Positions 2,532 to 62,224 of a stretch of DNA of 64,000 nt are shown piece by piece (within the stretch, counting starts at the first letter, position 1; every line of letters starts with the position of its first letter). The translations under genes and the position numbers were made by a program. The notes below the pieces were generated by a model, which ran no database searches, was not told the DNA's origin, and saw nothing but the letters and a program-made list of their open reading frames with translations. Origin of the DNA: Candidatus Daviesbacteria bacterium (GTDB lineage: Bacteria > Patescibacteriota > Microgenomatia > Daviesbacterales > UBA10151); NCBI GenBank assembly GCA_016187035.1, contig JACPKL010000008.1, positions 35,990-99,989 of the forward strand, written 5' to 3'.

Positions 2532-3782
2532 ATGACTATTGGTTTTGACGGGTCAAGGGCTTTTGGACAAAATAAGCAAAGCTCTTCCTGGAATGAGCAA
2601 AGCTCTTCCTGGAATGAGCAAAGCTCTTCCTGGAATGAGCAAAGCTCTTCCTGGAATAAAACAGGAACAGAAAATTATTCTTATCAGCTGTTAAAAGCAT
2701 TGGCAAAAATTGACAATAAGAATAGCTATATTGTTTATTTAAGACCTGATGTGGTTATTCCTGGTTTTTCTTCTGTCGTTCCGAACGTAGTTATGTTCGC
2801 TCGCAATGACCAGGAGGATTGGCCGGAAAATTTCCAATTTAGGGTTATTCCCTGGCCCAGGTTTTGGACCCAGGGAGGCCTAGCTTTGCAGACTTTTAAA
2901 GACAAGTTGGATGTGCTATTTATTCCTTCCCATACCTTGCCTTTAATCAGGAAAAGAGGGCTTAAGACTATGATTACAGTACATGATTTAGGATCAGAGT
3001 ATCTGCCATCAATGCACCAAATTAAGCAGCGGTTATATTTGTCTTTTATGCAAAAATACCAGCTTAAAACTGCTAGCAAGATAATTGCAGTATCAAAGGC
3101 TACCAAACTAGATCTAATTAACAAAATAGGTATCAAGTCAGATAAAATAACAGTTGTTTATGAAGGATATGATGAAAAAAGATTTAAGATTCAAGATTTA
3201 AGATTTAAGAATGATATAAAAGTTAATAGTTTGAGATACTTTTTGTTTGTAGGGACAGTACAACCAAGGAAGAATTTGGAAAGGGTAATAAGAGCTTTCT
3301 CAACTCACCTCGAAGGTGAAAAAATGCAGTTACACCTTCGAGGTGGATTGAAGCTGCTGATTGCTGGTTCCAAGGGTTGGTTATCTGATGAAATATATAA
3401 ACTCCCTAAAAAACTGGGAATAGAGGATAAAGTCAAGTTTTTAGGCTATGTGCCTGACGAAAAGCTGGCTTATCTTTATAAAGGAGCTATAGCTTTGGTT
3501 TTTCCCTCTCTTTTTGAAGGATTTGGTTTGCCTATTCTGGAAGCCCAAGCTTGTAGTTGCCCGGTGATTACCTCAAACCTCTCATCCATGCCTGAAGTGG
3601 CAGGTAAAGGAGCAATTTTAGTGAATCCGTATTCTGTAGATGATATAGTAAGGGGGATGGTACAAGTTCAAAGTTCAAAGTTCAAAGTTCAAAGTTTGAT
3701 AAAAGCAGGGCTTCAGAATGTTAAAAGATTTAGCTGGGAAAAGGCAGCGAGGGAAACATTGAAAGTGCTATCGTCATCCTGA
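2532..3782 (+). CDS. Glycosyltransferase family 4 (GT-B, GT1-type C-terminal domain)
   Basis: FPSLFEGFGLPILEAQACSCPVITSNLSSMPEVAG (E-x7-E region). N-terminus MTIGFDGSRAF is typical of GT4. Carries several in-frame repeat insertions. Confidence 0.85.
   Translation: MTIGFDGSRAFGQNKQSSSWNEQSSSWNEQSSSWNEQSSSWNKTGTENYSYQLLKALAKIDNKNSYIVYLRPDVVIPGFSSVVPNVVMFARNDQEDWPENFQFRVIPWPRFWTQGGLALQTFKDKLDVLFIPSHTLPLIRKRGLKTMITVHDLGSEYLPSMHQIKQRLYLSFMQKYQLKTASKIIAVSKATKLDLINKIGIKSDKITVVYEGYDEKRFKIQDLRFKNDIKVNSLRYFLFVGTVQPRKNLERVIRAFSTHLEGEKMQLHLRGGLKLLIAGSKGWLSDEIYKLPKKLGIEDKVKFLGYVPDEKLAYLYKGAIALVFPSLFEGFGLPILEAQACSCPVITSNLSSMPEVAGKGAILVNPYSVDDIVRGMVQVQSSKFKVQSLIKAGLQNVKRFSWEKAARETLKVLSSS
2576..2659 (+). 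repeat. Tandem repeat, 21 bp x 4 (gcaaagctcttcctggaatga)
   Basis: Three identical units and a fourth with one mismatch. Encodes (QSSSWNE)x4 near the GT4 N-terminus. Confidence 0.95.
3179..3213 (+). repeat. Heptanucleotide-period array (aagattt family), in frame in GT4
   Basis: aagattt aagattc aagattt aagattt aagaatg. Translated KRFKIQDLRFKND. Confidence 0.85.
3306..3345 (+). repeat. Perfect hairpin element (13-bp stem, 14-nt loop), in frame in GT4
   Basis: cacctcgaaggtg (3306-3318) and caccttcgaggtg (3333-3345) are exact reverse complements. Translated HLEGEKMQLHLRG. A second copy lies at 59238-59307. Confidence 0.9.
3663..3696 (+). repeat. Heptanucleotide-period array (caaagtt), in frame in GT4
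   Basis: caagtt followed by caaagtt x4. Translated VQVQSSKFKVQS. Confidence 0.9.
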
Positions 3783-3887: not shown

Positions 3888-4661
3888 ATGAAGAAGGATG
3901 TTCTTGGAATCAAAATTGATGATGTTAATATTAACCAAGCTGTGGAAGTAGTATTTGGGTGGTTGAAAGAGGGAGGTAGGCGCTACATTGTTACTCCTAA
4001 TCCTGAGATAGTGGTGATGGCTCAAAAAGACCAAGAACTTAAAAATATTTTGAATAATGCAGATCTGGTAATTCCTGATGGGGTTGGTTTAAAAATAGCA
4101 ACTGATATAGTTTGTAATACTCCAGGAATAGACTTAATGGAAGCATTAATAAAATTAAGCAATGGAAAAGGCTTTACAACAGCCTTTTTAGGAGGCAAAG
4201 AAGGAGTAGCAGAAAAAGCAGCTGAGTGCTTACTGCGGAAGTATCCAAACCTTAAAATCTCATTCACTGGTTCTGGTGGTGAAATAAATGAGAATGGAGA
4301 GTTAATAGGAGAAGATTTAAGATTTAAGATTTATGATTTAAGAGATAAAAACGTTCATAAATCGTTAATCGTTAATCGTAAATCTCTGCCGAAGGCAGAT
4401 CTGCTCTTTATAGGTTTTGGTCCTCCAAAACAGGAAAAATGGATTGCTAAGAATTTAAATAAACTGCCTGTGAAGATAGCTATGGTTGTAGGGGGATCAT
4501 TAGATTATTTGTCTGGCCAAGTGCCAAGAGCTCCTAAATTTATCAGAAGCTTAGGATTGGAATGGCTATTTAGGCTAATAATTCAGCCCTGGAGGATCAG
4601 AAGACAGCTTGCGTTGCTCAAATATCTTTGGTTAATTTGGACAATGGATGGTGGAAAATAG
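3888..4661 (+). CDS. WecB/TagA/CpsF-family glycosyltransferase (GT26)
   Basis: VTPNPEIVVMAQKD, IPDGVGL, FIGFGPPKQEKWI, GGSLDYLSGQVPRAPKFIRSLGLEWLFRLIIQPWRIRR. Confidence 0.85.
   Translation: MKKDVLGIKIDDVNINQAVEVVFGWLKEGGRRYIVTPNPEIVVMAQKDQELKNILNNADLVIPDGVGLKIATDIVCNTPGIDLMEALIKLSNGKGFTTAFLGGKEGVAEKAAECLLRKYPNLKISFTGSGGEINENGELIGEDLRFKIYDLRDKNVHKSLIVNRKSLPKADLLFIGFGPPKQEKWIAKNLNKLPVKIAMVVGGSLDYLSGQVPRAPKFIRSLGLEWLFRLIIQPWRIRRQLALLKYLWLIWTMDGGK
4311..4385 (+). repeat. 75-nt heptamer-based imperfect hairpin, in frame in GT26 gene
   Basis: Left arm is aagattt-type units (4312-4346). Right arm is aaatcgt/taatcgt units (4356-4385), roughly the reverse complement. This is exactly 25 codons (EDLRFKIYDLRDKNVHKSLIVNRKS). 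Confidence 0.8.
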
Positions 4662-4787
4662 AAGATAGTGGTGGAAGGTAGATAATAGATGATAGATAAT
4701 TTCTATCTTCTAAGAGCGAAGCTCGCAAGCTTTGCTTATATTCTATTTTCAAAAATACCATCTTCCATATTCTATCATCTATCGTCT
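4651..4787. repeat. Composite purine-rich / pyrimidine-rich repeat block with central gagcgaagc core
   Basis: gaaaatagaa / ttctattttc and gatgatagata / tctatcatctatc occur as reverse complements. Centre is taagagcgaagctcgcaagctttgcttatattct. Intergenic, overlapping the GT26 stop. Confidence 0.75.
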
Positions 4788-6055: not shown

Positions 6056-6147
6056 TGTCATTCTGAACGAAGTGAAGAATCTCTAGACTTGTTCTAAATA
6101 CATCTGAAATGAATTCAGAGATCCTTCGCTAATCGCTCAGGATGACG
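6056..6147. repeat. TGTCAT...ATGACG palindromic (MITE-like) element, 92 nt
   Basis: Left arm tgtcattctgaacgaagtgaagaatctct. Right arm agagatccttcgctaatcgctcaggatgacg. Fills the rplJ-rplL spacer and overlaps the last codons and stop of rplJ. Confidence 0.85.
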
Positions 6148-6679
6148 CTTGCGTGTCACCCCCCTTCATCTTTTGAATTTCTGAAAGTGCATATACTAAA
6201 TTTCTTAAGTTAGCTTGCAACACTCCCACAATTCCTTGCAAAGGAGCAACTAATACTCCTACTGTTTTAGCTCTTAGCTCCGGTTTTGAAGGAAGGGTGG
6301 AAAGTTGGATAATCTTTGCTTCATCCAGGCTGTCTTTACCTAAAAATCCTGATTTTACTTTACCTAAGCTGGCATCTTTTAATATTTTAACTAATATTTT
6401 AATAGGGGAGATCTCATCATCATAAGCAAAAAGTGCGGCAGTAGGACCTTCTAGATTGGAAGTTGGAAGTTGGAGGCTAGAAGCTGGAAGGGCACGCTCT
6501 AAAAGAGTATTCTTAGTAATACTAAATTCTGCAGATTGTTCCCTGAGTTTATTTCTTAGATCAGAGAGTTGCTTCATGGTCAGACCTTTGTAGTCTGTAA
6601 AAACCACTGCTTTAGCTTTAGCTAATTTTTCCTGTAATTTAATAACCAAATCTTGCTTTTGTTGTCTTGTTTTAGCCAT
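6137..6679 (-). CDS. rplJ: 50S ribosomal protein L10
   Basis: MAKTRQQKQDLVIKLQEKLAKAKAVVFTDYKGLTMKQLSDLRNKLRE. I place the start at ATG 6679. The 33 upstream codons of the track ORF look like non-coding leader. Confidence 0.85.
   Translation of the reverse strand: MAKTRQQKQDLVIKLQEKLAKAKAVVFTDYKGLTMKQLSDLRNKLREQSAEFSITKNTLLERALPASSLQLPTSNLEGPTAALFAYDDEISPIKILVKILKDASLGKVKSGFLGKDSLDEAKIIQLSTLPSKPELRAKTVGVLVAPLQGIVGVLQANLRNLVYALSEIQKMKGGDTQASS
6456..6490. repeat. Heptanucleotide-period array (ttggaag family), in frame in rplJ
   Basis: ttggaag ttggaag ttggagg ctagaag ctggaag on + strand. Read on the minus strand as PASSLQLPTSN. Confidence 0.8.
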
Positions 6680-6752
6680 ATTTGCCTTGGTTGGATTTAT
6701 GCTTCGACTGGTTCGACTACGCTCACCACCAGTCCGCTCAGCACCAACTGTC

Positions 6753-7848: not shown

Positions 7849-10800
7849 TTATCTTTGGAAAAAGTGAATCAAAAGGTTAATGAATCTGTTAAATACATGC
7901 CCGGTTTCAGCAACTATCCTTTGAGGTTTAGCTTGGGTGATTGGTTTAAATTTAATATCAGCCTCAGATGAAGCAGGCTTGTTTTGAGTTGATAATACTC
8001 CAGCTTTGAATCCTTTAGCTGGACCAATTATATTGTCTCCTGATGTTTTAACAGCCAGCTCATTTGAAAATTCCCCTGGCATACAAATGTTACCGGCTCT
8101 GACTTTGAAATAATAAGTCTGACCATTATTTAAGCCCTTAACCACATAGCTGGTAGTATCTTTGCCTCCAATATTAGGATTACCATATTCTGGTTTGCCT
8201 GATTTTGTGCCATAAGCCACTAAATAATAGGTGACTGGATCAGCTGCTTTAGACCAGGTTAAAGTCACCTGGTTTCTGCCAGATGCTTTTGCTGATAAGA
8301 GTTTTGGAGCAGATTGTGGTTTGCTATCTACACAAGATGCAGGAGTAGATGGATTAGAAGGAGATGAAGGATTAGAGGGGGAAGAGGGATTAGATGAATT
8401 AGAGGATGAATTTTGAGTTAGGGTATAAGTGACAAACTTGGTAAAATGCTTGGTCCAGATAACCATATCAGACCCTACACTAATGAAACAGTCTCCATCA
8501 GCTGGTAAATTATCACCTGCAGTTTGTGAATCTTCAGTACAGCTTTGGGCGATTTTAGTAAATGTTGAGCCTCTTTGATAGCCTGTCAGTTTACCGGCTT
8601 GGTTTGGAATTAATATTCTGACAGCTTTATCAAAGCTTAAAGCAATATCACCCAAACCAATTTCCAAAACAACAGATACTGTATTCATTTTGCCGGTTTC
8701 TGAAGGAGGATTGGCCTGATTGTTTGCCAATACTTTTGGAGCATTAATGATGCCTGTCCAACTTAACGGACCTGAAATGGTAGTAGAAGTTGGAATTTCT
8801 ACTTTAATAGTGCCTAAATCAGTATTAGCATTTATATTTAAAATGTTATTGAAGGTAGCTTGTTTAGAAGTAGCTGAAGTTACCATTATATTGCCAAAGT
8901 TTAAAGTTGGATTTGCCACAGATTTTGGAATAGATAAATTAACATTAAAATTGCCATAAGCCATCAGCATTTCCGGATGATCTGAGTCAAGATTAGCCTG
9001 AGGGTCAATTAAGACTTGGTTTGCATTTGGAGTTGCTAAATCCTGGCGCACTGATGGAGCAATAGTCAAATTAAGCTCGTTACTTTTTATGCCATCCTCC
9101 ATAACATATAATTTGTATGTTTGTCCTGCCTGGTAGTTTGTAAAAGCAGGTAAAGTGAAGCTAAGACTGTGGTGGTCTGCAGAGGCTGGTTTGTAAAAAT
9201 CAGAAACAACTAAAGAGTTATCTATATATATTTGAGTAGAGTTAGTTAAGTTTGAACCAGAAATGACAATAACTGTTTGCCAATTAGCAGGATTAGGGAA
9301 GATACTGTTTATCACAGGTGTAGCTACTGGAGTAGGTGATAGTGTGGGTGATGGATTTGGATCTGATTTTGGAGTAGGAGTTGATTTAGCATCAGGACCT
9401 GCTATCAAATTCCACCAGTCGCTTGGCATATTCTGCATCCACCATTTTAACCATCCATCTCCTGTGCAGCCCCAGGAATTACATGTTAATGGTTCGACTT
9501 CACCTGAATTATCATAATTGAAATTTCTACAGTCACTATCGAACCTGTCTGTGTTTGTCCTGTCATATTCAAATCTTGAATTAGGTGGATTATGGACATT
9601 GCTGCAAGAATTTCTGTCACTCCAGTTTGCATACCCGGTTTTAAACTGACCAAATACTCTTTCCAGGTGATGACCATAACTTTCCAAAGCTTCCGTAAGG
9701 CCTCTGGTGTAGTTTAAACCATAAACTACGATTGTTTTGTCTGGGCAATAGGGTAGATTTGCTCCGTTTGTGGTAAAGCCATTGCTTCCGGTGATTGCTG
9801 ATTCCCAGGATCCTCCAGCATACGGGCCTAAACCATCTGCCCAGAGAATGACTGCTTTAATATCATTTTGTTTAGCCAAGTTACAAAGATTATATTTGGT
9901 GAAAAGGGCTTGATAATCATATCTTCCACCTGCTTGTGGAGGAGTATTATATTCTACATGAGCATCAGAGTCAGATAAGGTATAGTTCAAAGCGGGTTGT
10001 GCAGAAGAATTTGAATAACCATGATATTTAGAGGCTTCATTCATGGCTGGTAAAAGCACATTCTGGGTGAATATTTTGTTATCTCCATTGACATGAAAGT
10101 AGTCTCCGCTTGGGTGGTATTCCAGCATCCAGACTTTTATTTGTTGAGGAGCAGGTATAGCTGATGAGGAAGGGGTTGAAGTAGGAGCAGGAATGGTTGA
10201 GGGGGAAGGGGAGGGAACAACAACAGGAGTGGATATTGGAGTTGGACTAAGATCTGGTAAGCAAAGGCGGAAAATCCAGAAATTTAAGCAGTTTGCAGGA
10301 TCATCAGTAATAGGAGAACTGATAGGCTGGGTACTTGGTGTGGCGCTGGCTGTAGCTTGAGGGATGGCTGAAGGAGAAACTGTAGGAGTAGGTTGTGGGG
10401 TAGGTGTAGAGGTTACTGTAGGGAAAGTGATATTAGAGTATAAACAAGGAGTATATTTAGAACAAGATTGGGCATCTGAGGATAAATCATTAGATCTTAA
10501 AGCTATATTTATCATTTCAATTTGTTGGTCAACGCGGTGATAGAAATTAAAATCAGCTGTAAAAAAGGCAATATTTCCATTTTCATCTGATCTCATTTGA
10601 TCTGATCTGACCGGATCATACCCTAAGAAATTGTTATGGACAAACCAAATAGTGTAGAGTGAGTTAGGTGTCAGGTTACTAAATACCCCGTTAACATAAC
10701 CCTTTTCTATTACTCCAACTGAACCAGACGGGCTTCTGTCAGTTAAGGTCACAGTCAATGTGCCATAACCATTTGGAGTTGGGCTTTCAGTAGCAGGTAT

Positions 10801-14317: not shown

Positions 14318-14351
14318 AATCTGATTTTGATATTTTACCTGACTCCAAACG

Positions 14352-14420
14352 AGATTTAAGATTTAGGAATTAAGATTCAAGATTTTTATTCTTAAATCAT
14401 AAATCTTATCTCTTAAATCT
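14352..14420. repeat. aagattt-family imperfect hairpin in the nusG-rplK spacer
   Basis: agatttaaga (14352-14361) is the exact reverse complement of tcttaaatct (14411-14420). The interior is made of aagattt-like units and their complements. Confidence 0.8.
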
Positions 14421-15108
14421 AGATTTTTTGTACCTGCAGAAAATCCAGTTCAACAGGTGTTTCCCTGCCAAATATAGAAACCAGAACCTTGATCTTTCCT
14501 CTTTCTTCATCCACATGATCTACTTTACCAATAAAGTCTGCAAACGGGCCGTCAACAATTTTAACAGTATCAGAAACAGTAAAAACCTGTTTAAAAGTGG
14601 GAGCTTCCTCTTTGGTGAATTTAACAATAGTAGCTACTTCAGCATCAGAAATTGGGGTAGGTTTATTTCCCATACCCACAAAAGAAGTGACTCCGGGGGT
14701 GGTCCGTACAGCCAGCCAGGATGCTTCATCCAAAATCATTTTTACCAGAATATATCCGGGAAAAATCTTTTCTTTAACTTCTATCTTTTTACCGCTCCTG
14801 ATTTCAATTTTATCCTGCATTGGCACCAGGACTTCCAGGATTTTTTCTTCCAGATGTTCTGATTCAATTCTCTGCTTTAAAGTAGCAGCCACCTTATTTT
14901 CATGGCCTGAATAGGTATGGACTACATACCATTTAGCATTGGGGTTAGAGGATTTGACGGTAGATGGTGGAAGATTGATGGTAGAATCTTGAGGATTGAT
15001 GATAGAAGGTGGATCTTCTTCTTTCGATTTTCCATCTTCTATTTTCAAAGTACTATCTTCTACTTTTCTATCATCTATTGTCTGTTCTTCTGTTTTATTA
15101 TTGTCCAT
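14419..15108 (-). CDS. nusG: Transcription termination/antitermination factor NusG with about 55-aa N-terminal extension
   Basis: WYVVHTYSGHENKV (NGN domain). KOW region VKIVDGPFADFIGKVDHVDEERGKIKVLVSIFGRETPVEL. Confidence 0.9.
   Translation of the reverse strand: MDNNKTEEQTIDDRKVEDSTLKIEDGKSKEEDPPSIINPQDSTINLPPSTVKSSNPNAKWYVVHTYSGHENKVAATLKQRIESEHLEEKILEVLVPMQDKIEIRSGKKIEVKEKIFPGYILVKMILDEASWLAVRTTPGVTSFVGMGNKPTPISDAEVATIVKFTKEEAPTFKQVFTVSDTVKIVDGPFADFIGKVDHVDEERGKIKVLVSIFGRETPVELDFLQVQKI
14959..15083. repeat. gatagaag-family imperfect hairpin, in frame in the nusG 5' extension
   Basis: The left arm ggtagatggtggaagattgatgg...gatgatagaaggtgga is collinear with the reverse complement of the right arm tccatcttctattttcaaag...tctatcatctattgtct. 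The right arm closely matches spacer 4741-4787. Confidence 0.75.
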
Positions 15109-21090: not shown

Positions 21091-21300
21091 ATGCCTTTAA
21101 TCTGGGATTATGATATAAATGAGCTGAAGAAAACTAAATCAGGCAGGCTCCTGATTTTGGAAAGATTAATTAATTATGGCCCCACCAATAAAAGGGAAAA
21201 AATCAGTTTATCTGAGGTCAAGAAGAATTGGGAAAGACTCAAAGGTAACTTATTCCCATTGCCAAAAAGACTAATGGAACTTCTTATATGGGGAAAGTGA
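21091..21300 (+). CDS. Small protein, putative partner/antitoxin of the downstream AbiEii-like toxin
   Basis: 69 aa. Overlaps the next gene by 13 nt. No recognisable motif. Confidence 0.45.
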   Translation: MPLIWDYDINELKKTKSGRLLILERLINYGPTNKREKISLSEVKKNWERLKGNLFPLPKRLMELLIWGK

Positions 21301-21956
21301 ATCAAAGAATAAATCTTACTCCAAAACAGCAGATCATATTTAATGAGTTCAAAAAAAGCGACTTTTTAAAACAAAACTTCTATTTTACAGGTGGAACCGC
21401 TCTTTCTGCTGTTTATTTAAACCATAGATTATCTGAAGACTTGGATTTTTTCTCTCAAGAAAAGTTTGATACTTTACCAATAGAAAATTTGATAACAGCT
21501 TGGGGGCAGAAATACCAGTTTAAAATTAATTTAAGGGAGGAGGAAGTAGTCAAAGTTTTTCTTCTGCAATTTGAAGATAAAGAGCAACTTAAAGTTGATT
21601 TTGGCTATTATCCTTATAAAAGATTAAGGCCAGGACAGGCCATTGACTGCGTGGAGATTGACAGTTTATTTGATATCGCTGTTAACAAGCTGCAGACCAT
21701 ACATCAAAGAGAGAATGTTAAGGATTTTGTTGATCTTTACTTTTTACTTAAGGATTTCACAGTGTGGGATCTAATAGAAGGTGTGAGGATAAAGTTTCGC
21801 ATGGAAGTAGACCCTTATACTATCGCAGCAGCTTATCTAAAAGCTGAAAGGTTTGATAGTTTGCCAAAAATGCTGGTATCACTGGATTTATCAGAACTTC
21901 AAGCGTTTTATAAAGATTTAGCTAAAAAGCTGGGCAAAAGTGTGGTAAAGCCTTAA
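21288..21956 (+). CDS. Nucleotidyltransferase AbiEii/AbiGii-family toxin (type IV TA / abortive infection)
   Basis: FTGGTALSAVYLNHRLSEDLDFF N-terminal signature. Size 222 aa. Confidence 0.7.
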   Translation: MGKVNQRINLTPKQQIIFNEFKKSDFLKQNFYFTGGTALSAVYLNHRLSEDLDFFSQEKFDTLPIENLITAWGQKYQFKINLREEEVVKVFLLQFEDKEQLKVDFGYYPYKRLRPGQAIDCVEIDSLFDIAVNKLQTIHQRENVKDFVDLYFLLKDFTVWDLIEGVRIKFRMEVDPYTIAAAYLKAERFDSLPKMLVSLDLSELQAFYKDLAKKLGKSVVKP

Positions 21957-30111: not shown

Positions 30112-30402
30112 ATGGGTATTTGGAGTAAAGAAACTGTTAATATTGAACATGGGCTGCCAATAGGCAAGTTAGCAGAACGGGAAGTGGCAAAAAGTCCTTT
30201 TTTAAGCACCGTGAAAAGGACTCGTAGCATCACTGGTGGCGCTCCTCAGGTATTGCTAGTCATAGGTGGTGTAGCCTTATCTATGCTTTTTGCGACAGGG
30301 ATCACTGAATGTAATCTGCGTTCAGCTGAAAAGGATGTAGCAGCAGCCAAAGCCATTGCTGTGAGGTTAGCTACTCCTACTCCTCAACTAACCAGCAGAT
30401 AA
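30112..30402 (+). CDS. Hypothetical small membrane protein
   Basis: 96 aa with one TM (VLLVIGGVALSMLFATGI). Supported mainly by the well-placed promoter. Confidence 0.35.
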   Translation: MGIWSKETVNIEHGLPIGKLAEREVAKSPFLSTVKRTRSITGGAPQVLLVIGGVALSMLFATGITECNLRSAEKDVAAAKAIAVRLATPTPQLTSR

Positions 30403-31301
30403 AGTCCAACTCCCAAAAGTCCTATTCCTGCTAGTTTAGATAGCAGTATCAGGAAAGAGTATTTTTCTTTAAACAGCCATAAACTAAATAAAAATAAAAA
30501 CACATATTGAATCCCTTGCAGGGAATTGACTAAAGCAGGGGAGGTTAGAGAAATAGCATAAGTTAACAGCAGCTGTTGGGTACCTCCCAGAGCCTGCCCA
30601 AACAGAAACAAAAATCCCGTTTTCTTGCCACCCTGGATAACAGAATGATTGTTGGAAGAAAGGACTATTTTGCGCAAAGAAGGAATCACTAAAATACTTA
30701 AAATAAGAGGAATTAAGATTATTCTTGAATAAACTAAAACTGTTAAAAAGTTAGACTCTAAGTAAGCCTGTCTCAAAACTAGATAAGAAACAGCGAACAA
30801 GAGAGCAGAGAGTATCCCCAGTAACAGCTCACCTCCGAGGAGTGGCTTTGTCCCTTCACCGGAGGTGTTGGTACCCATACATATATACGATCGTATCAAT
30901 GTATGGGAATTGAGGGTGATTAATCCTAAGATTAAAACTGCTACTGCTGCCAATTGAGTTTGGGAGATGCTTGAAAAAATTGCAGCATGGATCAAAAGCA
31001 AGAGGGGAACAAAAGTTCCAATTGTTGGCACTACCTTGGATACTTGCCCAATTTTGATGGCAGCAAACATGAAATAAGCGCCTGAGGTCCAAAGTATGGT
31101 TGAGACAGATGCTAAAAGTAAGGTATAGGAGTTAGGGATGGGGGTAAAAGGTAAAGCCAGAAGAATTAATAAGCTAAATAAAGAAATATAAATAACATAG
31201 CTTAAAGGGTTGGGGATGGATTTGGCCAGTAAGAATTTATCAATTGTTACAGCAATGCTGTTTAAAAGGTAAGCTAGGATGGTAAAAGGTAGATAAGACA
31301 T
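30384..31301 (-). CDS. EamA/DMT-family transporter
   Basis: 10 TM helices in two halves. TAATG junction with the upstream GH1 gene. Confidence 0.7.
   Translation of the reverse strand: MSYLPFTILAYLLNSIAVTIDKFLLAKSIPNPLSYVIYISLFSLLILLALPFTPIPNSYTLLLASVSTILWTSGAYFMFAAIKIGQVSKVVPTIGTFVPLLLLIHAAIFSSISQTQLAAVAVLILGLITLNSHTLIRSYICMGTNTSGEGTKPLLGGELLLGILSALLFAVSYLVLRQAYLESNFLTVLVYSRIILIPLILSILVIPSLRKIVLSSNNHSVIQGGKKTGFLFLFGQALGGTQQLLLTYAISLTSPALVNSLQGIQYVFLFLFSLWLFKEKYSFLILLSKLAGIGLLGVGLYLLVS
30830..30907. repeat. Two adjacent palindromes, in frame in the central loop of the EamA gene
   Basis: cacctccg (30830-37) pairs with cggaggtg (30860-67). cccatacat (30874-82) pairs with atgtatggg (30899-907), enclosing the perfect 12-nt palindrome atacgatcgtat (30885-96). 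Confidence 0.85.
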
Positions 31302-37504: not shown

Positions 37505-38405
37505 GAGGAAAATCAGGGTAGCCGTTTAAGAAGTCTTTGAAGGATATTGGTTTTTTCCCCTCCATTTGCAATAAATGTTCATCCTTCCTGTCATTCTGAG
37601 CGATTAGCGAAGAATCTTCCATGGATCGGGAAGATTCCTCACTCTGTTTTGGATAACGTATGGGTGGCAAAAATTTAATAATTTTGTTATTCCATTTTGT
37701 CCATACCCCTGGCCAGGGATAATAAGCGCGGATCTCTCTGTCTAATTTTTCAGGTTGGGGAGGATTATTAATATTAAAATAACCATCTTCTTTAACAAAG
37801 TGTTTAGTGTAAGTAGCCTTGGAATGATCTTGGGGGGTAGGATTAATTGATCCTTCCAAGTATTGTTTTATTACCTTTAAAATTAGTTGTCCTCCTAGTT
37901 CATTTAGCTTAGTCAATAAAGTATCTCTAGTTTCTTTGGGAGTCAGTATATATTCCTGTTGGGCTAGTATATCTCCGCTATCTACCTCATCAGTTATTTG
38001 AATGATAGTAACTCCTGAAATCTTGTCTCCATTAAGAATAGCAGTAGGAGCAGGGGAAGGACCTCTATATTTGGGTAAAAGTGAATGATGGATATTTAAT
38101 GGAGCATATTTTGGTAAGGTTAGCAAGTCTTTAGACAGGATTAATCCATAATCTTCCACTACCAAAAAATCACTCTTCAGCTTGGCAATTTTATTTATTA
38201 CTTCCTTGTCTAATTTACTTGTTTCCAAAGTTGGAATATTTAATTCACTGGCTAATTTTTTAACAGGACTATCAGGAATTGTGATAACTAACGATACAGG
38301 AAAGATTGAATAGACAATCTTTAATCCAATAATTGAGTACTTTGTATTCCCAAAAAAAACTAGTTTAAGTTTTGAGTTTTGATTTGAAGTTTTAACATTT
38401 GACAT
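37473..38405 (-). CDS. fmt: Methionyl-tRNA formyltransferase
   Basis: VFFGNT..., NIHHSLLPKYRGPSPAPTAIL, C-terminal LQMEGKKPISFKDFLNGY. Position is downstream of def. Confidence 0.85.
   Translation of the reverse strand: MSNVKTSNQNSKLKLVFFGNTKYSIIGLKIVYSIFPVSLVITIPDSPVKKLASELNIPTLETSKLDKEVINKIAKLKSDFLVVEDYGLILSKDLLTLPKYAPLNIHHSLLPKYRGPSPAPTAILNGDKISGVTIIQITDEVDSGDILAQQEYILTPKETRDTLLTKLNELGGQLILKVIKQYLEGSINPTPQDHSKATYTKHFVKEDGYFNINNPPQPEKLDREIRAYYPWPGVWTKWNNKIIKFLPPIRYPKQSEESSRSMEDSSLIAQNDRKDEHLLQMEGKKPISFKDFLNGYPDFPLKQLLRTRLF
37589..37646. repeat. TGTCAT-type palindromic element, in frame in the fmt C-terminal domain
   Basis: tgtcattctgagcgattagcgaagaatcttcc-atggatc-gggaagattcctcactctg. The arm nearly matches the reverse complement of the right arm of the 6056-6147 element. 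Translated (minus) as about QSEESSRSMEDSSLIAQNDRK. Confidence 0.8.
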
Positions 38406-39020: not shown

Positions 39021-39097
39021 GAAAGAATTTTAACAGAAAAATTCCTATATTGCATGTATCCTGCTATCCTACCTCGGAGGTAGGAATGAAGCTACAC

Positions 39098-39367
39098 CTA
39101 GGGTCTTCTATTATTTTGAAGTTGATGTAACCGCCACATAAATATTTTGGCTTTGGATTTGGCAGAAGTGTATCCTTTGGTAAAACTCAAAGTTTCCTCC
39201 AAGAGCCTTCTATCCAGCTGTTTGGCCAGTTTAATATATAGGGAATAACGCTTAGTATCTCCTAAGCTTTCTGCTAAGTATATCCCATATTCCTGAAATT
39301 CATGTGCTATATTCTTGGGTCTATCTTTAAACTTAGCATCAGCTATAGCTGTTTTGATGGACTTCAT
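39098..39367 (-). CDS. Hypothetical 89-aa protein
   Basis: ATGA-type 4-nt overlap with the upstream gene. No motif recognised. Confidence 0.45.
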   Translation of the reverse strand: MKSIKTAIADAKFKDRPKNIAHEFQEYGIYLAESLGDTKRYSLYIKLAKQLDRRLLEETLSFTKGYTSAKSKAKIFMWRLHQLQNNRRP

Positions 39368-41403
39368 GGACTTCCTGATTTTGTTGCCTCTTTTAATTGT
39401 TCTAATGCTTCCAGATAATCTGGTTTTAAGTTTAAGGTAGTTTTTAGATTTTCAATTTCTTCATCCTTTTTACCGATACTTTCTAAAATTAAAGCCTTAT
39501 TATAATAAAGCTTAGGATCAGTTGGGGCCAGCTTGATAGCCATATCTAAAGCTTCCAAAGTTTTGTTAACATACTTTTTATCTAAACTAGCTAATTCATA
39601 ATATGTCCTAATAGCTGTTCTCCAAAAAGAAACGTTTTTAGGGCTAATTGTTAAACTGATTTTTAATTGATTTAAAGCCTCATCTTCTAAAGCAGCAGAA
39701 AGAGAAGCGTCAGTTTCTTTTAAAGCAGCAGCAGCCGCAGCTGCAGAATAGCTAAGTTCAGAACGGTAGAACGGCTCTCCTTTATTTAAGTCAGAAGCCA
39801 TGCTTAATAAATTATATGCTTTGCCAGGATTACCTAAATCTGAGGCTTTTTGACCTTGATTGAACAGTGTATCAGCATACCAAAGCTGGAAGATAGAATA
39901 TAGAAGATAGAGGGTGGAAAAAATCACAATCCCTTTAGCTATATTAGTATAAATTTTCCGACGGTAGATGATAGAAAATAGATGATGGAATTTTGAAGCT
40001 GGAAGATGGAAGGTAGAAATAGAATCAGTAGCAACAAAAACCAAAGCAGGAAAAAGGTAAAAAAAGACAGCTATGATAACTACTGAGAATAGGAAGAAGT
40101 TATAGATAAGATAGGAGATATATGAGGCAAGAATACTATAAAGTAGCAGATTTTTGGTTCCTTTGCGTTTTAGTATAAGCGAAGCTTGATACTTCGTATT
40201 AACAATTATAAATTTTATAAAAATTATAATAATTATCAAATAAGTTCCAAATCCTACAATGCCTGTGGTAGCTAGATAATTCAAATACTCATTATGGGCT
40301 TTATTGTATAAAAAATCCCACTCAGAGGTTAAGTTATGCTCCTTTGGCCTGAATTGATAATATGAATAAGCAAATGTCTCCACTCCTGAGCCAAACAAGG
40401 GATAATGTTTAAAAATATCCAGGGCTCCATGCCAGACAATAAACCTGATTTGTCCTGATTCTGTGCCGCCATTTTCCAGTTGTGTACCTACAGAAGGATT
40501 GGAAGGTAAGCTGATGGTAGGTCTTGCTGGAGCAGCAAATTTAGAGACTAACCTGAAAGAGGTTAAAGCAGACCCAAAAAGAACATTAATAACCAGAAAA
40601 CTTAATATTACTATAAGTAATGATTTCAACTTAACTATATTTACGATTCCACCCTTAGGGTGGAGCCTTAGAATATAGAGACCGATAAGAGTGATAAATC
40701 CAACTATTAGGCCTAATGTTGGACCTCTTGAGTAGGTAAAGGTAAAAGCCAGGTAATAAATAACAAGTAGTAAGTAGTAAGTAGTAAGTAGTAAGGGGGA
40801 AGGAGCAGATAAGAAGAAATACAGGGCAGGGAAGATCAACATGGCAAGGTAGGCTGCCATCCAGTTTGGCTGGCCTAAGGTGGCAAAAACTCTTTCATAA
40901 ACTTTTTGCACCCAGCAGTCAGCATTAAATTCTCCTCTTAAAATTACACAGGAAGGTGATACCTGAAAGTGTTCTAAAATTCCCCAGACAGCAATAATCA
41001 GACCTGAAGCTAAGCCTATTTTTAAAAGGGGCTTAATTTTATCTGCTGTAACATTAGATACAAAGGCCCAGTAAAGCAAAAGATAACAGATTATGGATAA
41101 GAGGCCTCCATTGGAGCGTGAATAATAACCCCAGATAGAAGTATGAAGGTCTATTGAGAAAATAGTTGATAAAATATTAGCCCCTAAAAACAGCAGTAAT
41201 GGAATGTCCAAGGGTGTACGATTTAAGATTAAAGATTTATGATTTATGATTTTAAGAAGCCAACTCCCTACTATAACTACAGTCAATCCATAAGTTAAAA
41301 TCATCTTGTTATATTCAAAAAGCTCATAATTTAAAGAGGTCCAAAAAAGAGGAGTTAGAAAAAAGAGAGTATAAAAAGAATAGGAAATAATTTTATCAAG
41401 CAT
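39364..41403 (-). CDS. O-antigen-ligase-like polytopic membrane protein with C-terminal TPR repeats
   Basis: YSRGPTLGLIVGFITL (Wzy_C-like) and NEYLNYLATTGIVG. The C-terminal 150 aa are TPR-like (AYNLLSMASDLNKGEPFY..., YYNKALILESIGKKDEEI). Confidence 0.65.
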   Translation of the reverse strand: MLDKIISYSFYTLFFLTPLFWTSLNYELFEYNKMILTYGLTVVIVGSWLLKIINHKSLILNRTPLDIPLLLFLGANILSTIFSIDLHTSIWGYYSRSNGGLLSIICYLLLYWAFVSNVTADKIKPLLKIGLASGLIIAVWGILEHFQVSPSCVILRGEFNADCWVQKVYERVFATLGQPNWMAAYLAMLIFPALYFFLSAPSPLLLTTYYLLLVIYYLAFTFTYSRGPTLGLIVGFITLIGLYILRLHPKGGIVNIVKLKSLLIVILSFLVINVLFGSALTSFRLVSKFAAPARPTISLPSNPSVGTQLENGGTESGQIRFIVWHGALDIFKHYPLFGSGVETFAYSYYQFRPKEHNLTSEWDFLYNKAHNEYLNYLATTGIVGFGTYLIIIIIFIKFIIVNTKYQASLILKRKGTKNLLLYSILASYISYLIYNFFLFSVVIIAVFFYLFPALVFVATDSISTFHLPASKFHHLFSIIYRRKIYTNIAKGIVIFSTLYLLYSIFQLWYADTLFNQGQKASDLGNPGKAYNLLSMASDLNKGEPFYRSELSYSAAAAAAALKETDASLSAALEDEALNQLKISLTISPKNVSFWRTAIRTYYELASLDKKYVNKTLEALDMAIKLAPTDPKLYYNKALILESIGKKDEEIENLKTTLNLKPDYLEALEQLKEATKSGSP
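39884..40025. repeat. gatagaag/ggaagat-family repeat blocks, in frame in a TM region
   Basis: agctggaagatagaatatagaagatagagggtgg (39884-39917) and ggtagatgatagaaaatagatgatgg...ggaagatggaaggtagaaatagaat (39963-40025). The antisense strand is read as FSTLYLLYSIFQLW / DSISTFHLPASKFHHLFSIIY. Confidence 0.75.
40767..40794. repeat. Heptanucleotide array gtagtaa x4, in frame in a TM region
   Basis: Four exact gtagtaa units, read on the minus strand as LLLTTYYLL. Confidence 0.9.
41221..41255. repeat. aagattt-family heptamer array, in frame
   Basis: atttaag attaaag atttatg atttatg attttaa, read on the minus strand as LKIINHKSLILN. Confidence 0.85.
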
Positions 41404-43529: not shown

Positions 43530-43922
43530 ATGAAGTACTTATCTGTTAAAGATGTATTGCTTTTGCATAGTATGGCAGTTGATGAGAGCGGCGGTTCTCA
43601 CGGATTACGTGATTTAGGGCTTTTGGAATCAGCTGTCGCCAGACCTCAATCCTCATTTGGTGGAGAGGATTTGCATCCAGACATGTTTTTGAAAGTAGGA
43701 GCCTTAATTCATGGACTCTTGAGAAATCATCCGTTTGTGGATGGGAATAAACGTACCTCAATGTTTTCAGCCATGACATTTCTAGAATTAAATGGTTATC
43801 TCTTCGATGCAAGGCAAAAAGAAGTAGTTAATTTTGCTTTAAAAGTGGAAAATGAGAAATTATCTGTAGAGGAAATTGCAAAATGGTTAAAAGAGCACAC
43901 CAAAATTAGAAAATTAAAATAA
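43530..43922 (+). CDS. doc: Doc (death-on-curing) Fic-fold toxin
   Basis: LLESAVARPQ...HPFVDGNKRTS (Fic/Doc motif). Confidence 0.85.
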   Translation: MKYLSVKDVLLLHSMAVDESGGSHGLRDLGLLESAVARPQSSFGGEDLHPDMFLKVGALIHGLLRNHPFVDGNKRTSMFSAMTFLELNGYLFDARQKEVVNFALKVENEKLSVEEIAKWLKEHTKIRKLK

Positions 43923-58904: not shown

Positions 58905-59621
58905 ATGGATAAAGGATTGCTAATTGTTATAGATGGAATTGATGGGGCTGGCAAGACTACCCAAGTTGAGCTTTTAAAACAGTCTTTAGCCTCGCAAGGT
59001 CGGATTTGGGAGGCTATCAGTTTCCCAAGGTATGAGGATAATTTGTATGGCAAATTAATTAAAAGATATTTGGAAGGGGAATTTGGGAATATAAATGAAG
59101 TTAATCCATATTTGATGGCTCCTATCTTTGCTGGAGATAGGATCTTAGCAAAGCCTCTGATAGAAGTTTGGTTGAGTACTGGGAAATTAGTTATTGCTAA
59201 CAGATATGTTTCTGCCAGTAAAGCCCATCTTGGAGCTCACCTCGAAGTCTTCGACCCTGAGGCTCAGACCCGAAGGGGTGAAAAAATGCGATTACACCTT
59301 CGAGGTGTGCATTATCAAAGAGAAAACTTTATGAGATGGTTAGATAAGTTAGAATATGAAACTAATGGATTACCTAAACCAGATTTAACAATTCTCTTGG
59401 ATGTTGATCCAAAGGTAGGACAACATAATGTCCAGGATAAAAATGTTAAAGATATCCATGAAGATAGTATTAAACACTTGGAAGAGGCAGCTAAAATTTA
59501 TCTGGAGCTTGCCCAAGCTGAGCCAAATTGGCAGGTTGTAAACTGCATGATTTCTGATAAGATGAGAAGCAAAGAAGATATCCATAAAGAAATAACTGCC
59601 CTAATTGATAGATTAGTATGA
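58905..59621 (+). CDS. tmk: Thymidylate kinase
   Basis: LIVIDGIDGAGKTTQ (P-loop), NRYVSAS, PDLTILLDVDP. ATG 58905 is preferred over the track's GTG 58899. Confidence 0.85.
   Translation: MDKGLLIVIDGIDGAGKTTQVELLKQSLASQGRIWEAISFPRYEDNLYGKLIKRYLEGEFGNINEVNPYLMAPIFAGDRILAKPLIEVWLSTGKLVIANRYVSASKAHLGAHLEVFDPEAQTRRGEKMRLHLRGVHYQRENFMRWLDKLEYETNGLPKPDLTILLDVDPKVGQHNVQDKNVKDIHEDSIKHLEEAAKIYLELAQAEPNWQVVNCMISDKMRSKEDIHKEITALIDRLV
59238..59307 (+). repeat. Second copy of the 13-bp-stem hairpin element, carrying a nested 30-nt insertion, in frame in tmk
   Basis: cacctcgaag [tcttcgaccctgaggctcagacccgaaggg] gtgaaaaaatgcgattacaccttcgaggtg. Translated HLEVFDPEAQTRRGEKMRLHLRG. Confidence 0.9.
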
Positions 59622-61487: not shown

Positions 61488-62224
61488 AAATAGCTTTAGT
61501 AGGTTTTGGTAATATGGGTCAGGAGGTGGAAAGAGTAATTAAAGACTCTAATTTACACCAGGTAGTTTCCATCAGCTTAAAAACTATTAATGGTGATTGG
61601 GATAATAAAGGATTAAAGCAGGCAGATGTAGTGATAGATTTTACCAATCCCAAGGTAGTTTTGGGAAATATTAAAAAAGTGGCTGCTTTGGGTAAAAATA
61701 TGGTAGTTGGTACAACCGGCTGGTATGACCAAATTAATGTAGTAAAAAGAATTGTGAAACAAAAGAAGATTGGTTTAATTTATGCCCAAAATTTTTCCAT
61801 CGGGGCTAATATTTTCTTTAAAATCATCAAAGATGCCAGCGGGCTTTTTGCCGGATTTGAAGATTATGATGTATATGGTCTTGAGGTTCACCACAGCGGT
61901 AAAAAAGACAGTCCTTCCGGTACTGCTGTTAGGATTGCCAGGGAGATTTTAGACAAATTCCCGTCCAAGAAAAAATTACAAACAGAGAAATTAGATAGGC
62001 AAATAGCAAAAGATGAGCTGCATTTTGCATCTGTCAGGGGAGGCAGAAATCCCGGTTTTCATCAGGTCACTTTTGACAGCCAGGCAGATTCTATTACTTT
62101 ATCTCATCAAGCCCATAACAGGACAGGATTTGCCCGGGGGGCTATTTTAGCTGCAGAGTTTATTAAAGGCAAAAAAGGCTTTTACAAATTTGACCAGGTT
62201 TTTGAGGGAGGTGATAAAAGATGA
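61484..62224 (+). CDS. dapB: 4-hydroxy-tetrahydrodipicolinate reductase
   Basis: KIALVGFGNMG, VVGTTGW, EVHHSGKKDSPSGTA. The TTG start overlaps the lysC stop. Confidence 0.85.
   Translation: MKIALVGFGNMGQEVERVIKDSNLHQVVSISLKTINGDWDNKGLKQADVVIDFTNPKVVLGNIKKVAALGKNMVVGTTGWYDQINVVKRIVKQKKIGLIYAQNFSIGANIFFKIIKDASGLFAGFEDYDVYGLEVHHSGKKDSPSGTAVRIAREILDKFPSKKKLQTEKLDRQIAKDELHFASVRGGRNPGFHQVTFDSQADSITLSHQAHNRTGFARGAILAAEFIKGKKGFYKFDQVFEGGDKR

Follow-up and report, generated by a model that had tools for sequence, protein, structure and literature searches.

A family of miniature palindromic doublets read in frame in Daviesbacteria genes, and its association with RAYT-like transposase genes

We analyzed 64,000 nucleotides of contig JACPKL010000008.1 (positions 35,990 to 99,989, forward strand) from a Candidatus Daviesbacteria bacterium, a stretch that we call the window throughout. 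A 40-nt hairpin lies in frame there within a gene for a family 4 glycosyltransferase (GT4), and a longer, composite copy lies within tmk, the thymidylate kinase gene. Daviesbacteria are uncultivated ultra-small bacteria; proteins of the Candidate Phyla Radiation (CPR), or Patescibacteria, often exceed their homologues in length and contain unusual inserts. We found that the hairpin belongs to a dispersed family of very short palindromic units that lie mostly inside genes, and that units of this family flank genes for RAYT-like proteins (RAYT, tyrosine transposase associated with repetitive extragenic palindromic, or REP, sequences). The explanation that we consider probable is that the element is a miniature, non-autonomous REP doublet resembling a REPIN (REP doublet forming a hairpin), which was mobilized by a RAYT and has been kept where an in-frame insertion into a surface loop could be tolerated.

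The copies and related palindromes of the window, together with the two host genes of the hairpins, are the following; those at 30830, 39067, and 40646 had not been listed in an earlier note made from the sequence of this stretch.

2532..3782, plus strand: host gene 1, GT4 glycosyltransferase (Pfam Glycos_transf_1 and Glyco_transf_4).
3306..3345, plus strand: intact REP doublet (REPIN-like hairpin), in frame in GT4 as HLEGEKMQLHLRG.
30830..30867, no strand assigned: decayed doublet of the CCG/CGG subtype, consisting of CACCTCCGAGGAG, a 14-nt loop, and CACC--GGAGGTG, in an EamA-like open reading frame (ORF) at 30384-31301 (minus strand).
39067..39085, no strand assigned: arm-like palindrome TCCTACCTCGGAGGTAGGA, intergenic.
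40646..40665, no strand assigned: single REP-like palindrome, ATTC CACCCTTAGGGTG GAG, in a Wzy_C ORF at 39364-41403 (minus strand).
58905..59621, plus strand: host gene 2, thymidylate kinase of the M. tuberculosis type (Pfam).
59238..59307, plus strand: composite REP doublet in tmk, with its left arm at 59238-59247 plus 59278-59280, loop at 59281-59294, and right arm at 59295-59307.
59248..59277, plus strand: nested 30-nt hairpin in the center of the tmk left arm, its position ambiguous by 1 nt.

The arms of the GT4 hairpin, CACCTCGAAGGTG (3306-3318) and CACCTTCGAGGTG (3333-3345), are perfect reverse complements (13+13 bp) around the loop AAAAAATGCAGTTA (3319-3332), just as the earlier note had described. 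The GA at 3346-3347 is the flank that the family carries on one side, and with it the 40-nt element makes a 42-nt unit of 14 codons. The predicted fold of this plain copy has a free energy of -27.5 kcal/mol as RNA (z -5.5) and of -15 kcal/mol as single-stranded DNA (ssDNA; z -8.3). The 13-nt arm occurs exactly three times in the window. When up to 2 mismatches were allowed there were 4 matches, against 0.51 expected and a count not reached in any of 100 shuffles (0/100), and the pattern CACC-N5-GGTG likewise gave 4 matches (0.38 expected). A search of the whole window against Rfam at the gathering threshold returned three tRNAs only; by E-value, the sole weak match in the tmk region was to sucC RNA (E 0.98).

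The earlier note had placed a second copy of the same element at 59238-59307 in tmk, and this stood in part. The right arm is that of the GT4 copy and the loop, AAAAAATGCGATTA, is nearly so, but the left arm is interrupted after CACCTCGAAG by the 30-nt insert, so that the tmk copy is a composite of the GT4 element and not a plain second copy. Its predicted fold is a three-way structure. The ORF translations bear out the further claim that each copy begins at the first position of a codon and that the two share one reading frame of the element, giving HLEGEKMQLHLRG in ORF 2532-3782 and HLEVFDPEAQTRRGEKMRLHLRG in ORF 58905-59621; the stretches of the host proteins that span the element are ...STHLEGEKMQLHLRGGLK... 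and ...GAHLEVFDPEAQTR.... The nested 30-nt hairpin was considered as a possible repeat family of its own, but it had a single relative in the ~0.87 Mb of collected loci (L059:236-264, 4 mismatches in 29 nt), lying beside a duplicated tRNA 3' end. In that locus (L059:120-300) the tRNA 3' end is duplicated ~130 nt downstream, with the relative between the two copies, and the tRNA is possibly intron-bearing or interrupted.

The element is far from confined to this window. A scan of genomes for exact arms, using one genome per species, gave 16 loci, from which L008 and L014 were removed as GC-rich chance matches. The 14 genuine loci are AT-rich and Daviesbacteria-like, and nearly all of their exact-arm copies lie inside long open frames. 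A metagenome scan in which the central triplets of the arms were left free gave at least 120 loci, and among the matches listed the two central triplets were complementary in 75 of 127 hairpins, compared with about 2 expected by chance. These hairpins define a wider family of the form CACCT-NNN-AGGTG / spacer / CACCT-N'N'N'-AGGTG. The A-rich, ATGC-containing loop of the window element was present in 21 copies among the matches listed, with triplets CGA/TCG or CCG/CGG. Their hosts, as read from the translations, include the enzymes PheT (two sites), RadA, GT4, a P-type ATPase, DinB, YchF, UvrD/PcrA, and an ATP-grasp enzyme; the other sites are in a winged-helix regulator, two large membrane proteins, and a pilin leader region, with one copy just upstream of recJ. 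In the pilin case (L002:7560-7700) the element occupies the expected beginning of the leader peptide of a type IV pilin-like protein (...VQLHLRGVKLNSGFTLVEIL), and the GTG of its loop, with AAGGTG just before it, could serve as the start codon of the pilin-like gene. We also noted that L004, L007, L009, and L016 are titled 'uncultured Gammaproteobacteria', yet their genes are close orthologues of those of Daviesbacteria (GT4 59% identical, RadA with the same insert), and the titles look wrong.

Altogether, the same arms with closely similar loops were found in more than 15 unrelated host genes and in dozens of independent assemblies (NCBI, ENA, JGI, Logan), within intact long ORFs. The proposal of the earlier note that a mobile or copy-pasted element had entered unrelated genes is well supported by these hosts and by the tmk orthologues described below, and the wider search that it had suggested for arm-N14-arm copies was productive; a situation in which only two copies existed and the peptide was shared by orthologues from unrelated phyla, which the note had taken as fatal to its idea, is not what we found. 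Among the wider-family hairpins that could be judged, 64% lay within open frames of at least 150 codons and 36% outside them, compared with 87% and 13% for random positions. The wider family is mildly depleted from genes, yet it is mostly genic. The extragenic location expected of REPs does not hold here, both window copies being in frame in genes. One 770-kb contig carried 3 exact copies, and the 64-kb window holds 2 intact copies and 1 decayed copy.

The basic unit of the family is a 13-nt mini-palindrome, CACCT-NNN-AGGTG, in which CACCT and AGGTG enclose three free bases. Because each arm is itself palindromic, the two arms of a hairpin are both inverted and near-direct repeats of each other. 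The 40-nt hairpin consists of two inverted units around a short spacer, which in the subfamily seen here has the triplets CGA/TCG and a sequence close to AAAAAATGCAGTTA; elements are 37-41 nt long, or 70 nt with the nested hairpin. An extended unit, A(A/T)TC-CACC-N5-GGTG-GA(A/T)T, is seen in single units such as that at 40646-40665 and beside RAYT genes, and that palindrome and the units flanking RAYT genes have the same TCCACC-N5-GGTGGA architecture. The palindrome at 39067-39085 is possibly related to the family by its sequence. Decayed and broken doublets were seen as well, and at the GT4 and tmk sites there are arms that stand alone. A 40-nt copy that undergoes deletion between its arms becomes 27 nt shorter and stays in frame.

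We examined the flanks of the 21 copies with the A-rich loop. Direct repeats of at least 2 nt, as a target-site duplication would leave, bordered 3 of the 21, while flanks that had been shuffled gave a mean of ~2, so there is no excess. Nor does the stem extend outward, since the first flanking pair was complementary in 0/21, and none of the 21 copies has a GTAG or CGTC tag in its flanks. The flanks are asymmetric: CAA is common at -5 to -3, the consensus being CAA-TC or, on the opposite side, the complement of this, and a C before the left arm or a G after the right arm was present in 19 of the 21 copies, never both. Three reading frames of the element are used (HLEG..., TSKV..., PRR...), and a selected peptide is ruled out because the element is read in all three. 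Genic copies keep one continuous frame, and long open frames run through nearly all of them. Relative to the host gene, the loop has a uniform orientation at 14 independent genic sites and is mixed only at GT4. Because the side on which TC or GA is found is not uniform among copies, this bias more likely reflects selection on the peptide or the mRNA (GEKMxL versus VTAFF) than polarity of insertion.

Comparison with orthologues, another step that the earlier note had suggested, gave different pictures for the two hosts. Homologues of Tmk have ~217 aa, versus 238 here, and in an alignment of 22 the extra residues coincided with the element. Of 89 tmk orthologues that could be parsed at the site, 86 had the short, empty form; the remainder include one with an unrelated insert and one (P0003) with a single arm. 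At the DNA level the site is GCT AAT TTA CCT GAG GGC CAA in the closest empty orthologue and GCT CACCTTCCAGGTG AG CAT TAT CAA in P0003, the latter with a single arm plus GAGCATTAT. A reconstruction as a clean insertion did not fit, the net difference in length being 57-63 nt for an element of 70 nt. That the element in tmk is an insertion is shown by the orthologues that lack it. The insert corresponds to residues ~112-135 and falls in the sole low-confidence segment of the AlphaFold2 model (predicted local distance difference test, pLDDT, of 52-69 over residues 111-140, versus 87 overall), so the model places it at what may be a tolerated position. By sequence it aligns with a short segment of M. 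tuberculosis TMPK.

The loop that holds the GT4 element, by comparison, is hypervariable, with ...RAF(S/A) on one side of it and LKLVIAGSKGW on the other. In 120 orthologues this site held 14 arm doublets and 5 single arms, and in the rest either nothing or unrelated repeat-derived peptides. The doublets were the same element, with its loop in the same or the flipped orientation, or the CCG/CGG subtype read as HLRG...HLGG. Two orthologues, L140 and L141, retained one arm beside a remnant of the loop, and the single arms at this site are best read as deletion products. On a neighbor-joining tree of the 120 orthologues the carriers were unclustered, 18 changes being counted for the 19 of them; given its poor resolution, the tree offers weak evidence for recurrent gain.

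Other repeats were noted at and around this site. Several orthologues (among them P0123, P0147, P0150, P0162, and P0190) have peptides of the types VIARSEATKQS...ARNDN, SAVRQKT...DDRRLMTDD, and FVIRYS...KND in the hotspot, and residues ~85-97 of the window GT4 (VVMFARNDQ) look like another repeat-derived peptide. These sequences suggest that in-frame insertion in these genomes involves several families of palindromic repeats. Runs of GATTTAA-like heptamers occur in the window at 3175-3217, 4308-4350, 14347-14425, and 41214-41256; they are in frame in two genes, as KRFKIQDLRFKND in GT4 and EDLRFKIYDLRDKN in a WecG-family gene, and one run is an intergenic inverted pair. Peptides of the form DLRFKN...LIINHKS, akin to the products of the heptamer runs, fill the hotspot of other GT4 orthologues. 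At the 5' end of the GT4 gene (2571-2654), a 21-nt unit is repeated four times in tandem and read as QSSSWNE x4.

A candidate enzyme came from one of the collected loci, L038, where a 225-aa ORF is bracketed by two hairpins with identical loops. Its product matched Pfam Y1_Tnp with 25.3 bits (cut-off 23) and NCBIfam REP_Tyr_transpos with an E-value of 1.8e-13. A tblastn search with this protein gave 11 matches, spread over 9 loci that had each been collected for their hairpins. Two Daviesbacteria loci with the exact element also hold a RAYT, ~1.9 kb away in L011 and ~6.5 kb away in L002. REP_Tyr_transpos was the only NCBIfam match for 6/6 RAYT-like proteins tested (E 1e-10 to 1e-14), and the family has the conserved motifs YH.N, HUH (H-x-H; MP-T/N-H-x-H-x-L), and RYIHLNP. 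When compared with solved structures, the family profile matched 4ER8 (E. coli TnpArep) best, followed by ISDra2 TnpA; the profile was needed, as one Daviesbacteria RAYT, searched as a single sequence against the same library, returned nothing.

We read the flanks of 13 RAYT-like genes and found exact units at 5, variants at 7, and a different repeat at the remaining one (L049). Exact CACCT-NNN-AGGTG units lie within ~100 nt on one or both sides of the genes of L060, L041, L055, and L149 and of the first gene of L038. The seven variants are of the form CACC-N5-GGTG and include CAACCTTCGAGGTTG at L147, the nearest to the CGA/TCG subfamily, and TCCACCCTCCAGGTGGA at L011. RAYT genes are flanked by units of the wider family. 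The 15-kb contig of L038 carries three RAYT paralogues (1077-1706, 6064-6738, and 9446-10123) with variants of their own, TTCCACCCGTCGGGTGGAA, CACCCCAGGGGTG, and CACCT-TAA-AGGTG. The element sequence TCCACCTCGAAGGTG would be a candidate ssDNA substrate for the RAYT of L011 or L002.

We propose that doublets are copied to new sites as ssDNA hairpins by a RAYT-like HUH/Y1 tyrosine transposase that would be encoded elsewhere in the genome. This would be the route proposed for REPINs and shown for IS200/IS605, and it leaves no target-site duplication. Because Daviesbacteria genomes are nearly devoid of intergenic space, most insertions would hit genes, and the survivors would be those that keep the frame, contain no stop, and lie in tolerant surface loops. 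This would be why HLEGEKMxLHLRG is read in both GT4 and Tmk. After insertion, the inverted arms would allow the loop to flip, deletion between them would leave a single arm, and other hairpins could nest in the center of an arm, as in tmk. The sequences show the repeat family and its anatomy, the insertion in tmk, the lack of target-site duplications, and RAYT genes flanked by units of the wider family. That a RAYT mobilized the CGA/TCG subfamily, and that it did so by the ssDNA route, is what we infer from these comparisons taken together. The predicted hairpin of -27 kcal/mol may have an added effect on translation; an RNA-hairpin effect on translation or stability, which the earlier note had raised, is not needed to explain the data.

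Several observations weigh against this explanation. A tblastn search did not find a RAYT in the 64-kb window, and Pfam showed no transposase among the ~40 of its ORFs that were scanned. No RAYT among the collected loci is flanked by exactly CACCT-CGA-AGGTG, and both Daviesbacteria RAYTs near copies (L011 and L002) are flanked by variant units; as far as these sequences go, flanking by cognate units appears to hold for the wider family and not for the exact CGA/TCG subfamily or for this genome. The RAYT-like proteins score 39-53 bits, below the NCBIfam equivalog cut-off of 80. Exact copies number 2-3 per 64-770 kb, which is low compared with classical REPINs, and no difference in presence or absence between near-identical genomes was seen. 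Furthermore, in pairs of orthologues of GT4, RadA, and PheT the arms were 26/26 identical in all but one, whereas 150-nt coding flanks were 60-70% identical, a comparison biased by the fact that most copies were found by exact-arm search and some were chosen by peptide, with decayed copies existing as well. Because the identity of the arms includes synonymous positions, the constraint is at the nucleotide level. Such conservation is unlike a passive, immobile remnant and points to ongoing homogenization, re-insertion, or function.

Turnover at occupied sites was also apparent. At the GT4 site, three CCG/CGG copies combine perfect arms with 23-nt loops that are unrelated, and in the close relatives L001 and L005 one PheT site differed by replacement of a block. 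These cases suggest recurrent replacement or re-insertion at sites already occupied. A comparison of L001, L005, and L071 for an empty PheT site yielded decayed or rearranged copies and no empty site. Because the arms are conserved against flanks of 60-70% identity, the GT4 loop is reoccupied without clustering of its carriers, and the loop lies mostly one way round, one could go further and suppose that a RAYT-REP system has been maintained long-term in the CPR, repeatedly rewriting surface loops, and that its hairpin, which mimics an SD/anti-SD pair (SD, Shine-Dalgarno sequence) with an in-frame start, was perhaps co-opted at the mRNA level. We regard that larger claim as rather improbable.

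The same conservation could mean that the hairpin is primarily a functional mRNA structure under host selection, acting either on pausing or stability or as an internal SD (AAGGTG) that is masked and followed by A6 and an in-frame ATG. Such a role would suit the strong predicted RNA fold (-27.5 kcal/mol, z -5.5), the arms kept at synonymous positions (26/26 in GT4 and RadA orthologues with flanks of 60-70%), the one loop orientation at the 14 independent genic sites, GT4 alone being mixed, and the element of L002, which is found where the pilin leader peptide would start. It would also suit the invariant CACCT and AGGTG, which equal the anti-SD and SD cores, and the ATG (or GTG/TTG) that is in frame in the loop of most copies. 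However, the copies occupy non-homologous positions of unrelated genes and intergenic positions too (36% outside long frames versus 13% for random positions), some GT4 orthologues have the loop in the flipped orientation, the doublets decay to single arms and broken forms, no Rfam family matches, and the same units flank transposase genes. Because most window genes are without an SD, the resemblance of the element to one may be coincidental. We consider this role unlikely. At the starts of ~43 long window ORFs we saw very few recognizable SD sequences, the clear exception being at 62221 (GGAGGTGATAAAAGATG).

Perfect terminal inverted repeats, small size, and dispersed copies are also what a classical miniature inverted-repeat transposable element would present, that is, one derived by deletion from a DDE-type insertion sequence, bounded by terminal inverted repeats of 13 bp, and transposed by a cut-and-paste mechanism. 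We judge this very unlikely: target-site duplications are not enriched (3/21 copies with at least 2 nt, null ~2), no insertion sequence with matching ends (CACCTCGAAGGTG) was seen in the ~0.87 Mb of collected loci, each arm is itself a palindrome and is also found singly, and the transposase genes that the units flank are HUH/Y1 and not DDE. Even less weight falls on local formation of the palindromes, in which short quasi-palindromes would be perfected at each site by template switching or fold-back repair and nothing would move from one site to another. Single arms and doublets do occur at the same sites, the step from one to the other adds 27 nt and keeps the frame, and the palindromes stay perfect, all of which a local origin could explain. 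It cannot yield a 14-nt loop (AARAAATGCRRYTA) that is shared by more than 15 unrelated loci and by different species, however, and it leaves the same units beside RAYT genes unexplained. Finally, the recurrence of the peptide in several proteins might have spoken for a selected protein motif (HLxG...HLxG), but the three frames and the nucleotide-level conservation, synonymous sites included, contradict it, and an assembly artifact is at odds with intact long ORFs in dozens of assemblies from four sources (NCBI, ENA, JGI, Logan). Both ideas are scarcely credible.

A RAYT-mobilized REP doublet has clear precedents. REP/REPIN elements with RAYT transposases were reportedly described by Nunvar in 2010. 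In REP/REPIN-RAYT systems, short palindromes form inverted doublets and cognate units lie beside the transposase gene (Bertels and Rainey 2011, PMC3116915). The Daviesbacteria family resembles them in its short palindromic unit, present mostly as hairpin-forming inverted doublets with singlets that look like decayed doublets, in the lack of target-site duplications, in the HUH/Y1 genes flanked by units of the wider family, and in the paralogous transposases of L038 with their own variants. It differs in size (units of 13-21 nt and a doublet of 40 nt, versus ~70-110 nt for REPINs), in having no GTAG tag and an apparently low copy number, in having about two thirds of its copies inside ORFs instead of between genes, in a divergent transposase clade that falls below the NCBIfam cut-off, and in its lineage, the CPR. 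We found no report of RAYTs, REPINs, or such elements in the CPR in the literature, including by full-text search. REPs inside genes are known as well: singles and dimers lying wholly within ORFs, adding 20-30 residues, many of them in replication and repair genes, were read as tolerated insertions into loops or linkers (Di Nocera et al. 2013, PMC3733652). Hosts of the repair type recur here (RadA, UvrD/PcrA, DinB, and the copy upstream of RecJ); those families are GTAG/CGTC-tagged with an intragenic minority, whereas ours has a different tag and an intragenic majority.

Rickettsia palindromic elements (Ogata 2000) offer a further parallel. As they are presented in section 4.2 of PMC10969869, they are ~100-150 bp long, encode a conserved peptide of 30-50 residues, belong to Alphaproteobacteria, and have no transposase tied to them. 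By that account, both kinds are palindromic repeats of reduced genomes, carried in frame by many housekeeping genes that are unrelated to one another, with a peptide compatible with the host fold; the Daviesbacteria elements are set apart, by description and not by sequence comparison, by their length of 37-41 nt, their three frames, and their lineage. The small dispersed repeats of cyanobacteria, from Elhai's work of 2008, are reportedly 21-27 nt long, nest in one another, and can lie inside genes; they are likewise tiny, nesting, and intragenic, and would differ in sequence and phylum. Translational bypass inserts (phage T4 gene 60, mitochondrial byps) are also short hairpin-forming inserts in coding sequence, frame-breaking or stop-bearing ones that ribosomes skip. 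Bypass is unnecessary here because the genic copies keep a continuous open frame, and translation through the element would be the simple reading. REP/REPIN-RAYT systems, intragenic REPs, and Rickettsia elements are established; what sets this family apart is the very short unit and doublet, the different end tag, the mostly intragenic location, the divergent RAYT clade, and the CPR host.

Some features of the window lie apart from this family. The ORFs for ribosomal proteins L1 (12988-13899) and L10 (6137-6778) and for NusG (14419-15108) may contain further inserts; the L1 ORF has 303 aa, with its Pfam match spanning only residues 165-294, and all three appear longer here than in other bacteria. 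A 28-nt inverted pair, 93% complementary (GTCATTCTGAGCGATTAGCGAAGAATCT), lies at 6119-6146, near the L10/L12 genes, and at 37590-37617, inside a formyltransferase gene. Purine-rich GGTAGATGGTGGAAGAT-like repeats occur in or near intergenic stretches at 4637-4700, 14953-15013, and 39884-40017. The window also encodes an AbiEii-family toxin (21288-21956) and a Fic/DOC protein (43530-43922).

If the element is a RAYT-mobilized doublet, as we think probable, one class of CPR protein insert could be ascribed to a specific DNA element and a candidate enzyme. REP/RAYT biology would then extend to an uncultivated radiation with very small genomes, in which the repeats lie mostly inside genes. CACCT-NNN-AGGTG doublets may serve annotators as a signature by which repeat-derived peptide can be told from native sequence, and the copies in Tmk, PheT, RadA, and UvrD would be a set of natural examples of essential enzymes that tolerate insertions in their loops. 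Given how unusually strongly the arms are conserved, one may ask whether such systems persist through usefulness to the host.

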